Position numbers and translations under genes: made by a program
Notes under the pieces: generated by a model
Databases searched by the model: none
What the model saw: only the letters and a program-made list of their open reading frames with translations
What the model was told of the DNA's origin: nothing
Source: Octopus sinensis
Lineage: Eukaryota
Reading direction: 5' to 3'
DNA: 64,000 bases
NCBI RefSeq assembly: GCF_006345805.1
Contig: NW_021835988.1
Span: 391,142 to 455,141, forward strand
Part shown: positions 13,393-51,434 of the stretch, in pieces
Numbering within the stretch: position 1 is the stretch's first letter
Layout: each line of letters begins with the position of its first letter

Positions 13393-13892
13393 TTTCATCT
13401 GTCTTACGCCTCCCCCAGCAGTCTCTTGTTTGCCGACAATGTTATTATGTCCGAAACTGGTATTCAACAAGGCGACCCTCTTGGGCCTCTTTTATTCTCA
13501 CTCGGTGCTGATCACATTGCCCGTCAATTGTCCTCTGAGGTCAACATTTGGTACCTCGATGATGTTACTCTTGGTGGGGCTTTGGAGATCGTCAAGAATG
13601 ATGTAGAAAAAATTATTTCTGGTTTTGCTTCCATTGGACTCGCTTTGAATGGATCCAATTCTGAGCTGATATGTTTGTCTGCGAGCCCTTCAGAATTCAA
13701 ACTTATTTTTTCCACCTTATCTCACCATATTGAAGACCTGTGCATCACCCAGCTTGATGACCTTATCATTCTGGGTTCTCCAATCAATAGCAAGTCTACT
13801 AGGAAGGCTTTATGTAACAGGCTCGAAGAATTGGAAACTCTATTCTCCCGCATTTCCAAACTTGAATCCCATTTAGGCCTTTTCTTGCTCAA
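13393..13892 (+). mobile_element. CRE-like RT fragment (second family)
   Basis: GIQQGDPLGPLLFSL...NIWYLDDVTLGG. Confidence 0.9.
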
Positions 13893-14156
13893 GATGCATT
13901 AAAACTCCTGATGAATTAAAGAACATTATGAACTATATTGAATATGTCGCGAGCGCGACGCGCACGCGAGCCGCACATATCGACTTTTTTAAAAGCTATT
14001 AAATGGAACAAAAAATATCAAATAACGTTAGTACCATTGAGATAATATTCCAATATATATAATATATAAAATCTATCTAATATAATTTATACGGCGTACC
14101 AGAATCATACAACATTTTTAATACCGTTGCACGCTTAGTTTCGTTTTGTTGTAACA

Positions 14157-15746
14157 ATGTCACAATCGAACCAAAGATGCTTTATTCAAGATCAATTTGA
14201 ATATCAGGAATTAAAGAAAGTCCTGTCTGGGGAGATTCCACAGACAGATGACAGATTCCGGAGACGAAGGCTTATTAAGAAAGCCGAATCTTTTGTGTTT
14301 ATTCAGGGACACCTTTATCTGAAAGATGGAAACATTAACAAATTAGTGATTTCGTTGGACGATACTAAACAAATGAGAATGCTTGCCGAACAGTTACATA
14401 AAATCAATCATTGTGGGCATAACGCATTGGAGAACCTATGCAAAGAACGATTTTTCATAATCAAAAGAGATATCATTCGTGAAGTTGTTTCGAACTGTGA
14501 CGTTTGCCGCTTTTCCACACCCCTTAAACAATCGGATTCTGAATTTCATGTTATTGCAGACAGACCCAACAGAAGATTTCAAATGGACTTAATAGATCTT
14601 AAAAGGCATTCATTTTAATGAAGTTATTTAATAGATTTAAGAATAATAATGACTCATATACGTGGCTATTAACAGTCATTGATGTATATAGCAAATATGC
14701 TATTACACGCAATTTAAAAAACAAATCAGGTGTAGAAGTAGCGAAAAATCTTGAAGAAATTTTTATGGACTACGGACCTTGTGAATTTTTTCAGTCCGAC
14801 AATGGAAAGGAATTTAAAAATTCCCACATTTCGAATCTTTTTGCGGAATATAACGTTAAACAAATCCATGGACGACCTAATCACCCTAAAAGTCAGGGGA
14901 TTATAGGTTTAGTCAGACGATTTCGAGATTTTTAGAACGGTTTAATCAGACAATTTCGAGATCTTTGTCAAAAATGATGTTTGAAGACCAGAACAAAACT
15001 TGGATTAAGCATATCAGGAAAGCGGTTTATGTGTATAATCTGACAAAACATTCTTCGACAGGTGCTATAAATAAAAACTATAATATAGATGAAACACCAT
15101 TTATGCGATATCGTGGAATACCTGGTTTTAATCCAATTGTCTATGATGCACAAGTTGATGACAACAGAGACGATAGTTTAATTCAAAAAAAATTTTTTTA
15201 GATTTTATAACTACTAATGATGAACCAGAAGTCGGCACAATGATTTTAAAAACGCATTCTTCGACAGGTGCTATAAATAAAAACTATAATATAGATGTGC
15301 GATATCATGGAATATTTGGTTTTAATCCGGTTGTCCATGATGCTCAAGTTGATGACAACGAAGACGATAGTTTGATTCAAGATAGAAAATATTTTTAGAT
15401 GTTGTAACTACTAATGAAGAGCCAGAAAAATCATTCGATTTTAATTTTGTTCCGGTTAATTTGGACTCGCGTTATTTCAAACGAATGAACAAAAGAATGG
15501 GTGTTCATCGTTCTAAGTACGATTTGAAAGCAGGAGATACTGTATACGTTATTTTTTGTTATTTCAAAGGCAAGAATTCAAAAAGATTATGGGACAAATC
15601 CATCTCTCAGATTAGAAAAATTTGAGAGCCCATATTCTTCACCTGTAAAAATCATTGAAAAGTTATCTAATAATTTTGTCATGATATGCACCAGGGAAGG
15701 AATGCATAAAAAGATACACTCAAAAAGACTTAAAAAGATTATATGA
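14157..15746 (+). CDS. Ginger-like (gypsy-type DDE integrase) transposase gene split by at least 5 tiny introns, with an internal ~200-bp tandem duplication
   Basis: H..NHCG..CDVC; FQMDLIDL|RF..WLLTVIDVYSKY; FQSDNGKEF; PKSQGII|ERFNQTI; introns 14606-14634 (GC-AG), 14907-14935, 15062-15088 and others; GC-rich TGT-starting end at 13945. Confidence 0.85.
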
Positions 15747-15773
15747 TTTTTTTGTTGGCTAAAAATTTTTTTG

Positions 15774-16420
15774 CAAGATGCATTAAAACTCCTGATGAAT
15801 TAAAGAACATTATGAACTATATTGAATATAATCAGTATCCTGATGACTTCACTGAAAATCGAAAGCGGACGTTACGCAGAAGATGTAAGAATCTACAACT
15901 AGTAAATGGAGAATTATTTTTTGCACATAATGGAAATTTCCGTACTGTTGTCTGCTCTTTTCAAGAAGCTAGAATTAACTCAATTTTAACTAAAGAACAC
16001 TCTATCGGACATCCAGGTGTTACCAAAATGTGCCATTTAATTTCCCAAAAATATATTGGTATCAGTCAAAAAGTTATTCGCCATTTTATATCGACTTGTG
16101 AATCCTGCAATCATTTCAACAGCCTAAAGACATGTGAAGATATTCGAATGATCACCGTCTCCCGTAAATTCGAAAGATTTATGGCGGATTGTGTTGATCT
16201 TAGGAGATATTCTGATCACAATAATGAATATAAATGGATTCTTAATGTGATCGATTGCTATTCAAAATTTGCATGGTCATTTCCTCTCATAAATAAGACA
16301 TCACAAAATATAAGAAATTCATTTAAAGATTAGTTTTACTCAGTTGGGCCATCAGAAAGTCTACACACAGATAATGGAAAAGAGTTTTGCAACTCACAAG
16401 TGTCAACATTATTACGTGAT
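15774..16420 (+). mobile_element. Second Ginger-like integrase, 3'-truncated with an in-frame stop
   Basis: HSIGHPG..CESC; FMADCVDL; VIDCYSKF; then LHTDNGKEFCN after the stop at 16331-16333. Confidence 0.85.
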
Positions 16421-20173: not shown

Positions 20174-22106
20174 ATGGATTTAATTGAAGGAGCAAAATTT
20201 TACATAGATTTAATGCTTGAAGACGCCGGTCCCGGAATGAAGGCAATGCTATTCGATGCCAATACAGTAACAATATAAAACATAATTAAATTAGGCAAAA
20301 ATAGTAAGCTACATATATTCCCCAACGGAACTATTATACAAACAAGTATTTTTATTCGACCAATTAAAAAACCAAACTTGCGAGTCTCTATCTTTCGTAG
20401 TGGCCATAATTTTTGTGCAGCCGACCAATTCCAATTATAATTTAATCCTCAAAGAACTGTCAACCCCCCGATTTACACATTATGCAATATGTCCCCAATA
20501 TTTAAATATTTTAGATTTCTCAAGTTACTGTCCAACTGACTTTATCGAAGGGATTGCCATGGCAGATAACGACGAGAGAGTCCTGGCCCTCAGAGTATTC
20601 TTATCTGGGTTACTCCCTTAAGGAAATTTGCTTAGACTACTATGCCCATGGTCCTTGTCTCTTTACATTCAACATTGAGACATGTCATACGGTTGTAATT
20701 TAATTAATATTTAAAAATAGAATAATGGAGGTTGGAAAGGTGATTCATTTGAGCTTGTTTGTGGGGGATTAATGTCAGTGATCAATTCGTTGGGGCAAAA
20801 CCCCGAGATCCGTCATCAAGGCTCGTCCCCTCATTGTGCCAAAATATGCTATGAACTAAAAAATATGTTGGACATGCAGAACGAATCTTCTAAGGACTAT
20901 GATTCGCTGCTAGTCATAGTAGATCGGAATATAGACCCAGTGATCCCTGTCATCAATTCGGTCTCTTTAACCGAGTTCACTAGCATAGTGGACTTATGAG
21001 GCTATGATACACGAATTGGTAGGAATACACGACAATACGGTAAAATTGACACCGAAAGGCTCAAAGCAGATTGTAATAACATTAAATTCGGCGAATACAT
21101 TTTTTAAACAGGTTTTCTGGACGATATTGAACCACGTGTATAGAATCGGTTGCTTTTTTACGATGAAATTGTGTCCAACGTGTCCAGTTGTATAGAAAAG
21201 ATCAAAGGATTTAGCCAAGGCTTAACGGGGACTGAGTCATTGTCATATATGAAGGTTTTTTGGTTCAGCATGTTCAGGGATTTGTGGAAAAGTACACCAA
21301 ACAGAGGAAGTGGGTGGAAATGGTGACACAACACTCCGACCTTGTAGGCGAACTAACGAGAATAGCCACAGAAAACAGTCTGTTCGAGACTTCGCTTCTG
21401 GAACAGGACATTATTGCATCAAAATTAGATTTCTCTCAAGTTATGCAAGTATTTTTAGTTTTTTTACAATTTCTATGGCAGAAAGTTGGCAATTTGTTTG
21501 CCGATTGCCCGAATGTGACTGCCTTGGACACAATTCGACTGTCCTTGTTGTGTTTGATTAGATTTCCTGAGGCTGCCAACTATAAACTTGACATATTCAA
21601 CAAACATTTGCTCAAGCTGAACGTCTCTCCTCAAATGTATCAAATTCCGCAGTCATTTCAACGTTTTTTGAGCAAAAAGTCGAGTAATCGGACTGATGGG
21701 ACTATTTTGCGGTGGAGGGAGGCTTTGAAGAAGGCCTCCAAGTCTTATCAAAGTGACCCTGTCAATTTGTACCGACGCTACCGACCATATTTGGCTACCC
21801 TGCTTTCCGAGATTGCCGAAAACAGTCTATCACTAACTGACTTTCCAAGCTCTTTGCAATATAACCCGTTTTTTGGAAAGGATGTGAAGAAGGGAGCCCA
21901 AACTAAAGGGGGTTACTCAAAAGTTGTCGTATTTATTGTTGGAGGAGTCACCTATGCTGAGGCTGGAGTCCTGGAATCAGAAAATTGGCCTTTTCAGGTT
22001 ATTTTGGGAGGAACTCGAATTCACAATTTTGACACGTGAGTTGAGGGGTGTTATTTTATTTAGTTATTCCAAGGAGATAGTCAACATTCTTAGTTCGTCT
22101 GGATGA
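20174..22106 (+). CDS. VPS45: Vacuolar protein sorting 45 (Sec1/Munc18 family), 9 tiny GT-AG introns
   Basis: Spliced MDLIEGAKFYIDLMLEDAGPGMKAMLFDANT|AKIVS...DRNIDPVIP..|WTYEAMIHEL...VVVFIVGGVTYAEA...LGGTRIHN; introns of ~23-33 nt restore one frame. Confidence 0.93.
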
Positions 22107-49198: not shown

Positions 49199-51434
49199 TT
49201 ATCGATGATTAGCCTTAAATCTTCTCTTTCCACTTAACAAGTGCTTTGGTCTCAGATTAGGGACATGTCTATCTCCCTCTCCCTTCCTAGACTCCAAAGC
49301 CATTTTCCTTTGTGCACATCTCTGCATTTTAGTGACCACGCGATAGGCCGCCTCATCCTTAAGTCCACTCATATCTCGACCAGGTCTCTTGACTAATGCC
49401 CGACCCCCCTCAGCCTTCTCACCAGCACTCAAGGTCACAGCCCTTCGATTCACATTTGACGAATTCCTCAGTTTTTGAACTATAATAAATATAAATACGC
49501 TCACTATTGTGGGGTCATAGGCCTCGCTTCCTCTTCTCATTCTCTTTTCGAGACTCCTCAATTCGAGTCTGTGGAGTGCTCGTGGAGTCTTTCGTTTGAT
49601 GGTCCTCTTCACTCGTCCTTTCTGGATTAACAAATTCTTTTGTATTTTGATCCTAATTACTAATATGCCAAAATCAAACTGTTTTGCTGTGGCACGAATC
49701 TTCTTTGTGTCTTCGTCCTCACTTTCTGAACTATCATAAAACCCCGCTTTTTCCCTCAACTCCTCCTCTGTGTTGAGTTGTTCCAATCTCTACCACTCAT
49801 TCCCATCAGTAACTACCTTAAATATAAAGGGATCCACAAAATCAGCCACATTATGACCATTATAAAACTCCGGAATTACATCATACTTGTACTCCTCTGG
49901 CAAATCATAATTCTCTACAAACAATAACCACAAAACTACTTTTAAAATCAATAAAATAATCATCTCCCATTTCCCGTTCAATGTCCTTTTCTAATCGCTT
50001 AGAAGCTTCCGGTTTTATGACCTCAGGGATGTAAGGGAGTCTCAACTACAATCCATTTGTGGCATTAACCTTGTCATCACGCGGAATAGGCTCTGCCACG
50101 TGGACTCGGCTGACCAAATCAGCCCCTTTTGAGTTGATTTTGGCTTCAACTCTCATCTCCAATAATCGGTCACACGCCTCTCCCTTTACTTGTTCTATCC
50201 CCTCTCCACTAATCGTGCTCATTTGAAGGACAGTTCCCTCAAACTTGGAGATCACACTCTGATATATATTTACTATAAGGACAGTACTCTTCTTTCCTCA
50301 TCTAGTTGTTCCAATGGACACAAATCAGTCTTATTTGCACAGACTAAGACCGGCTTGCCTTGGAAAAGTGGTTTTATATTCTCGTACAGTTCAAACTACA
50401 GTTATTTAGATGTTTTACTTGCTGAGAGAGGGAATATCCACAGGACTCGGATGGGTCGATCATGTATATTACTGATGCCTTCAGGTGAGCCAAAGCAGTC
50501 ACTGCCTGCATTTCGATTGTGTTCCTTTCCTCCAATGCATGGTCCAGTATTCCCGGAGTATCAATCACCTTAATTAATTATCACATATTATTTAATTAAT
50601 TATTAATTTATAAACTAATTTTATAGTAATAAAATAATTATAGTATGGCGAACCTGCCATCTAAGATAGTTATAGTCTGTGTGGCCTACGTAAAGGGACT
50701 TGGTGGTAAAGGCATAACTCTGTACTTCTACATCAGCTCTGGTTATCTAGGAATAAATAGACATTACTCACAGTGTTAAGAAAACTGGATTTGCCCACAT
50801 TGGGGTACCCACATATGATCAAAGTCCGAGTACTGGGGTCAATTGTGGGAAGTCTACTGAGATGTTGTCTAACCTGCTCGAGGTATTCCAGAGAGGAGGA
50901 CTGTCTTCTTATAATAGTCACCATTCTACATTGATATTCCAGACACCACAACCTCCCAAGTCCCGCTCTTTTGAGTTGCTTACATCGGAAAAGAGAATCT
51001 GCGAGTTTGACAAGTCTGGTGTAGTCACGTGCAACACTGAGGTGGTGATAAAGTAAATAAACTTGTCGATTAGATTCTTTGCAGTGTTGATCTGTCCGAG
51101 TGCTAGTTTATAGTGATCTCGGTCGTATAGAATGTTCATTAGGTCTGTATAGAATGGATGTACTTCCTTTGTGTGTTATAAAATGGGTACATCGAGTTTG
51201 GGGAATTGGGAGATTATTGCTGTTAGGCGGTCGTGGAAGTTTTGTTGGGTGAATTTGATTTTACGGAGATAAAATTGACGGATTTTTGTTAGTTTTTCTC
51301 GTTTATGGACTACTGTTGGTGTTTTTCTCTGTGTTTTGGAAAGGGTAAAGTCGATAAAATTCTGTTTTATTTATTCTGCTTTATACTTTTGCTGATGGAA
51401 CTACTGTTATGCCTCGGAAGTTATAACCCACCAT
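49199..51434 (-). CDS. GTPBP4: Nucleolar GTP-binding protein 1, 12-13 introns (one of 85 nt, the rest ~23-29 nt)
   Basis: [16 protein letters not shown]|[77 protein letters not shown]. Confidence 0.96.

Follow-up and report, generated by a model that had tools for sequence, protein, structure and literature searches.

A Candidate Young Tiny Intron Copied from the Adjoining Exon in the Transposase Gene of a Ginger2/Tdd-like Transposon

Results

The Transposase Gene and Its Predicted Introns

The window, by which we mean the whole 64,000-nucleotide stretch that was analysed, carries a transposase gene on its forward strand at 14157..15746. An ATG stands at 14157 and a stop at 15746, and the predicted end coincides with the end of the homologues. 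With seven tiny introns removed, the gene is predicted to encode 464 amino acids comprising an H2C2 zinc finger, an rve DDE core, and a C-terminal region; outside the predicted introns the 464 codons contain neither stop nor frameshift. Pfam assigns the core to PF00665 (rve; E 6e-13), with the H2C2 families PF17921 and PF09337 falling below their cut-offs. The residues of the DDE core are Asp144 or a neighbouring Asp, Asp205, and Glu241. Glu241 lies 36 residues past Asp205, i.e. D(35)E, a spacing shared by 79 outside homologues (37 in six others and 35 in three), and in a natural homologue the glutamate that is restored here aligns with the corresponding Glu of foamy-virus integrase. Genetic code 6 was tried first for reading the gene and proved unnecessary.

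Introns were predicted with a custom spliced protein-to-DNA aligner, the references being two unrelated homologues of 45–48% identity. The aligner picked the borders of the insert described below unprompted, together with three older introns on the forward strand: 14606..14634 (29 nt) and 15062..15088 (27 nt), at positions common to the clade, and 15542..15569 (28 nt), at a position common to most of the main clade. The donor of the first is GC in every subfamily copy that covers the site and GT in the closest relative, L009 (83%); among the 66 distinct introns of the family, no other begins with GC. Three further introns in a duplicated linker, also on the forward strand, were called by eye: 15176..15201 (26 nt), found in the relatives L008 and L009 as well, and the duplicates of the 15062 and 15176 introns, at 15268..15294 and 15370..15398 (29 nt), respectively. 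In the linker, about 206 nt have been duplicated in tandem and in frame (15049–15254 and 15255–15427), which doubled two older tiny introns. Its units are 83% alike and identical over their first 43 nt, and L004 lacks the first unit. The C-terminal duplicate has a dN/dS of 0.86 over 33 codons, with no selection visible on its residues.

The Transposon and Its Insertion

The gene lies within a copy of a Ginger2/Tdd-like DNA transposon with terminal inverted repeats (13945..15773, forward strand), which has its 5′ inverted end and lacks about 410 nt of the 3′ end, inverted repeat included. In other copies the ends begin with TGTCG and the inverted repeats are about 40 nt long with 87.5% identity; both ends are present in L007 and L174, and 5-bp target duplications flank L007, L021, and L170–L174. 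From end to end the element measures about 2.2 kb and is occupied by one gene and its flanks, with neither reverse transcriptase nor RNase H. The earlier note had called the gene an integrase. Inverted ends, 5-bp target duplications, and the lack of reverse transcriptase mark a DNA-transposon transposase and rule out a retroelement or provirus. Ginger2/Tdd elements lack GPY/F and YPYY motifs; by eye, no exact motif of either kind was seen here, but the C-terminus resembles a worn GPY/F region.

A 55-nt target sequence (13890..13944, forward strand) is repeated perfectly at 15774–15828, behind the truncated end. Copy L002 (G000:C12459, about 96430–98340) likewise keeps its 5′ inverted end, lacks its 3′ end, and is flanked by a perfect target repeat, in this case of 35 nt. 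Both copies are likely to be one-ended insertions that were completed by host repair. The element has inserted in a second, more distant H2C2-integrase gene (15774–16420), which is broken by a stop and by truncation. Non-autonomous elements of about 605 bp (L170–L173 and L176) share 42 identical nt with the 3′ end of the subfamily and have 5-bp target duplications.

The Insert and Its Exonic Template

The candidate new intron is a 29-nt GT..AG segment at 14907..14935 on the forward strand, present as the earlier note claimed, which splits the codon of the catalytic glutamate in phase 1. The repeat described in that note is there as well: positions 14906–14933 match 14939–14966 at 25 of 28 bases, with a period of 33. 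The exonic template (14939..14966, forward strand) is the start of exon 3 and encodes the helix after the catalytic Glu. Bases 1–26 of the insert copy the downstream exon from exon base 5 on, with three differences, all transitions, and the last three bases copy the three immediately before the exon; 28 of the 29–30 insert positions are traceable to the adjoining exon. Compared with 70 nt of flank on each side (+1/−1, ungapped), the insert scores 21, and the maximum among 20,000 shuffles of its interior was 14. The match between insert and exon is far above chance. The template contains no AGGT, and its AG and GT stand four bases apart, which accounts for the difference between the intron length of 29 and the repeat period of 33.

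Removal of the insert restores the DDE glutamate, as had been proposed, and yields the 464-residue frame once the six other predicted tiny introns are also taken out; retention brings a premature stop after 249 amino acids. An internal AG at 14927, 8 nt ahead of the acceptor, would stop the frame at 242 amino acids if used. The GC content of the interior is 0.32, and the maximum among the 66 other distinct transposon introns is 0.30. Counted back from its last base, the insert has single As at 7, 9, and 15 nt, and it contains no A run; the branch-point signal is described as weak in dicyemids (PMC13644364). Both amino-acid-changing differences between insert and exon are on the insert copy, the template exon having retained the family-conserved Asn and Ser, and the third mismatch is synonymous. 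The insert sequence was found at no unrelated site in a search with a 131-nt query, which a lone 29-nt match could escape: the seven matches are all copies of one gene. The same search thus gave no sign of an introner, i.e. a transposon-derived intron.

Distribution of the Insert Among Related Copies

All seven copies of one young subfamily, near-identical and recovered in two separate searches, carry the insert, and none of the 93 related copies outside the subfamily that align across the site has an intron or insert there. The sample was drawn from the top scores among 2,117 first-look candidates; its 152 loci gave 152 alignments, which duplicate removal reduced to 108. A tree of 36 collapsed rows and two outside proteins, with 22 of the 108 rows left out as shorter than 150 residues, nests the subfamily in a clade of 22 rows (support 100/97), and none of the others in that clade has this intron. 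The comparison with insert-free family copies that the earlier note had suggested thus indicates a derived insert. Of the two outcomes that the note named as refuting, restriction to a single dead copy is not observed. Presence in every subfamily copy and absence from the relatives argue for a gain, and the alignments support a derived state and an origin by local copying of the next exon.

The subfamily copies occupy different insertion sites, at least five of them with different 5′ flanks, and are 97–100% identical; L001 and L002 differ by two substitutions in 1.8 kb. None has both ends plus the whole gene, all seven being truncated, interrupted, or deleted. No close insert-free parent was found among the seven matches, and in L008 and L009, the relatives at 83%, a deletion has removed the insert site. 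Between the subfamily and L009, dN/dS is 0.137 over 238 codons, a value that spans the whole branch and does not date selection to the time after the insert arose. In L019 and L025 no intron was called at the clade-wide position 147.2, and these copies may have lost one.

The Host Genome and Its Tiny Introns

A host gene of the Sec1 family, Vps45-like, lies at 20174..22040 on the forward strand and served as a control for intron type. Its eight predicted GT–AG introns measure 23–33 nt and leave the frame unbroken; their GC content reaches 0.42, and three of the eight contain an internal AG. The 66 other distinct transposon introns are predictions from alignment. Among them, 64 measure 21–30 nt, 21 start with GTT, and 45 end with TAG. 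An AG as near the acceptor as that of the insert occurs in four of these 66 and in two of the eight host introns. The comparison supports a resemblance between the insert and the host's own tiny introns of 21–33 nt. A further host gene with many apparent tiny introns lies at 49200–51400 on the reverse strand; by its motifs, it is probably NOG1/GTPBP4-like.

The assembly (G000; 2.7 Gb in 13,516 contigs) contains two kinds of 18S gene. The long kind measures about 2,600 nt and is found mostly on very large contigs; the short one has 1,667 nt (L153; G000:C1618:6101–7767). The short gene matches the published dicyemid primer R2 at 23 of 23 positions, alone among 164 loci that include 11 other 18S loci, and primer F3 at 20 of 22; L154 has no F3 match. 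Both primers were taken from the supplement of PMC6778094. A set of 60 loci fetched from the assembly lies wholly on contigs of at most 1.3 Mb. It is likely that the genome of a parasite, a dicyemid, was co-assembled on small contigs with that of its host animal, and the short 18S gene, the primer matches, and the Vps45-like introns suggest that the contig of the window is likely to be of dicyemid origin. Dicyemid introns have a median length of 27 nt (PMC6543705), and their splice signals are reduced to GTa and AG, with an A run proposed as the branch site (PMC13644364).

Other Introns of the Transposon Family

The earlier note had also suggested that small duplications might be a wider route to introns, and had proposed a test of tiny introns for similarity to their flanks. 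Run against shuffles on the 66 transposon and eight host introns, this test gives the wider route no support: a flanking source comparable to that of the insert was found for none of the 66 and for none of the eight introns of the Vps45-like gene. Four transposon introns reach p ≤ 0.05, with 3.3 expected, and two of these p ≤ 0.01. The latter score 12 and 14, nowhere near 21, and one of them, 41 nt long and located in a decayed copy, is a doubtful prediction. In L127, a perfect 60-nt tandem duplication includes the donor of the intron at position 236.0; it is possibly a read error.

Predicted introns recur at 13 other positions in the family, each tied to a clade (L015, L117–L152, and other loci of the assembly), position 317.1 being doubtful. 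In a quick tree of 47 rows, three lineages of the assembly with non-overlapping intron sets group with outside proteins and not with one another. Nearest to the main clade among the outside proteins are one from a microsporidian (named Dictyocoela roeselum at its source) and one from a metagenome. Judged from contig sizes and sources, these relatives are probably intron-free, the alternative being loss there. Lineage-specific intron sets, taken together with outside relatives presumed to be intron-free, make repeated intron gain in the transposon family likely. The proximity of the three lineages to outside proteins, of which the nearest named one is microsporidian, hints at horizontal transfer between parasites.

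Traces of Decay Since the Insert Arose

If the gene has been dead since insertion, the three mismatches in 28 positions between insert and template set the decay to be expected in its 1,392 coding bases. Under such neutral decay, the lack of any stop in the coding bases has a probability of 0.04–0.11. One of 34 invariant residues is changed, and 5–6 changes would be expected (P 0.10–0.14); at a looser threshold of 90%, the count is 5 of 68, with 10–11 expected (P 0.18–0.26). The joint probability is 0.018–0.031 with stops only, 0.007–0.013 with an assumed indel rate of 5%, and 0.005–0.008 with the direction of the two amino-acid-changing differences taken into account. Death of the gene since the insert arose fits these values poorly. 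Each part of the test is weak alone; the whole rests on three differences and would have no force had the copying itself introduced the mismatches.

The protein of the subfamily, whether spliced or unspliced, was absent from the protein collections, a result that is silent on splicing. A first search gave five matches among 54 candidates, at 39–48%, and a second none of one; the best value was 57–60% among the 150 protein representatives listed, and at most 65% to any fetched locus. A search of sequencing runs listed no RNA run. In two runs of unstated kind, the shares of words present are 0.89 and 0.84, which is not evidence either way.

Discussion

The insert is probably a young tiny intron, which we predict, from comparisons of sequence, to be removed by the spliceosome of the transposon's host. 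Its origin can be pictured as follows. An exon in which four bases separate an AG from a GT would have suffered a local copying error that doubled 33 bases, and that spacing implies that four bases of the first copy were skipped or later lost. The GT of the first copy would thereby have come to follow the exon's AG without a gap, and the second AG produced by the doubling would have become the acceptor, 29 nt further on. A spliceosome with reduced signal requirements that handles introns of 21–33 nt would then remove the insert and restore the wild-type protein. Under such splicing, selection would have preserved the exon copy and left the intron copy to drift, and the subfamily would have kept transposing after the gain. 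Three features of the insert count against its removal as an intron: its interior is richer in GC than any of the 66 other introns, an AG lies 8 nt ahead of the acceptor, and it has no A run. The earlier note had specified a 33-bp tandem duplication plus a 4-nt loss. This route fits the letters exactly, yet it is indistinguishable from one templated insertion with two template switches: each of the two joins shows one base of microhomology, so that a single event fits as well as two steps.

The duplication may instead have killed one copy, with GT and AG falling in place by chance and the dead copy being spread in trans by a related transposase. A sister family of about 11 near-identical copies has similar ends and could spread dead copies in this way, and non-autonomous derivatives have clearly been mobilised in the same genome. 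Every subfamily copy lacks at least one end or part of the gene, and the GC donor at 14606 is possibly a second lesion; if it is unused, the gene is dead in any case. Against inactivation stand the 464 codons without another break and the single change among 34 invariant residues, which give a joint probability of about 0.02–0.03, or 0.005–0.008 with the direction of the amino-acid-changing differences. Moreover, exact GT..AG introns arose in only 2.5% of 21,672 simulated tandem duplications of 20–35 nt in the gene, and the seven matches include no insert-free parent. A scan of 108 copies (107 kb) disclosed two other local repeats only. We consider a plain inactivating duplication unlikely.

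That the intron once worked in a subfamily that has since become non-functional, so that the present copies may be silent or poorly spliced, seems to us very unlikely. Such a history would accommodate the GC donor found in every copy that covers the site, where the closest relative has GT, and the truncation, interruption, or deletion of all seven copies. However, GC–AG introns are reported in Ginger transposases (PMC2836005), and the two substitutions that separate L001 from L002 indicate that transposition was recent and later than the GC change. It is also conceivable that an older intron slid to the site or was overwritten by exon sequence, and another clade of the family does have an intron 10 nt upstream, in eight copies. 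That intron is limited to other branches and is absent from the 22-row clade of the subfamily, and the adjoining exon accounts for the whole insert; we regard displacement of an older intron as highly improbable. The fresh gain of a spliced intron therefore remains the reading that we prefer.

It is tempting to go further and to suppose that, for a spliceosome needing little beyond a GT and an AG 21–33 nt apart, small local duplications regularly give rise to introns, the present case being the youngest of a series. We hold this to be doubtful. In the simulations a frame-restoring GT..AG arose at once in about 9% of 20–35-nt duplications in the gene, a figure that is an upper bound. If the supposition were true, older introns would have lost their trace through rapid drift to AT-rich sequence, and transposons present in many copies, with broken intermediates that can be moved in trans, would be nurseries for new introns. 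With tiny introns at about a dozen clade-specific positions and with outside relatives that are probably intron-free, the family would be a system for measuring intron gain, and its likely host is an animal with a minimal spliceosome.

By comparison of described features, the element matches Ginger2/Tdd DNA transposons (PMC2836005). These elements have a transposase with H2C2 and DDE domains, TGTNR termini, and an AT-rich 4-bp target duplication (5 bp in TDD-4/5); introns, GC–AG ones included, are reported in Ginger transposases. Grouped with them here is the SCAND3/KRBA2 clade (PMC3575427). The present element shares with the Ginger2/Tdd elements so described (PMC2836005, PMC3575427) the two domains, the form of the ends, the inverted repeats, a 5-bp duplication as in TDD-4/5, and the lack of reverse transcriptase. 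It differs in that its inverted repeats are about 40 nt long and imperfect and its introns are 21–30 nt long and clade-dependent at a dozen positions.

Like the ultra-short introns of dicyemids and myxobolids, the insert has minimal GT..AG signals, and its length is near the 27-nt median of dicyemids (PMC13644364, PMC6543705, PMC6736024). The accounts consulted describe intron shortening, in contrast to the birth of an intron proposed here; a search of the open-access literature for the birth of introns in dicyemid transposons gave nothing. The source of most newly gained introns, even recent ones, is described as unknown (PMC4974935, PMC4202315, bioRxiv 10.1101/051292). In Daphnia, repair-born introns show intron–exon repeats of 4–12 bp, the source of most inserts being unknown (PMC4202315), and in a fast-gaining mite an intron search gave no clear sources (bioRxiv 10.1101/051292). 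The insert resembles the Daphnia introns (PMC4202315) in being recent and lineage-specific, in sharing sequence with the adjacent exon, and possibly in stemming from one repair event; in contrast to their short repeats, nearly its entire length comes from the neighbouring exon. If spliced, it would be one of the rare new introns that can still be traced to their source: an insert of less than 30 nt with nearly every base sourced to the next exon and with the intron-free state shown by relatives.

Intron gain by tandem duplication is established; it has been tested once in vivo, and many cases, imprecise ones, are on record (PMC3443670, PMC4974935, PMC2891723). A review notes that many of the known cases are imprecise, with latent splice sites. 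The insert shares with such introns its origin as a copy of the adjoining exon, the derivation of both splice sites from doubled sequence, and a protein unchanged after predicted splicing; its retention brings a premature stop, which is also true of the Drosophila cases. It differs from known tandem-duplication introns in being shorter than 30 nt, in lying in a transposase, and in splitting a catalytic codon, where function would demand exact splicing. In contrast to the many imprecise cases, its predicted removal restores the coding sequence exactly. Of the features of the classical tandem-duplication intron of Rogers, exon-derived sequence and absence from outgroups are found here, whereas there is no AGGT unit and the intron and its period are unequal (29 versus 33). 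The proposed mechanism is thus a variant of known tandem-duplication gain, one that departs from the strict AGGT rule and in which the donor would have been supplied by the skip of four nucleotides.
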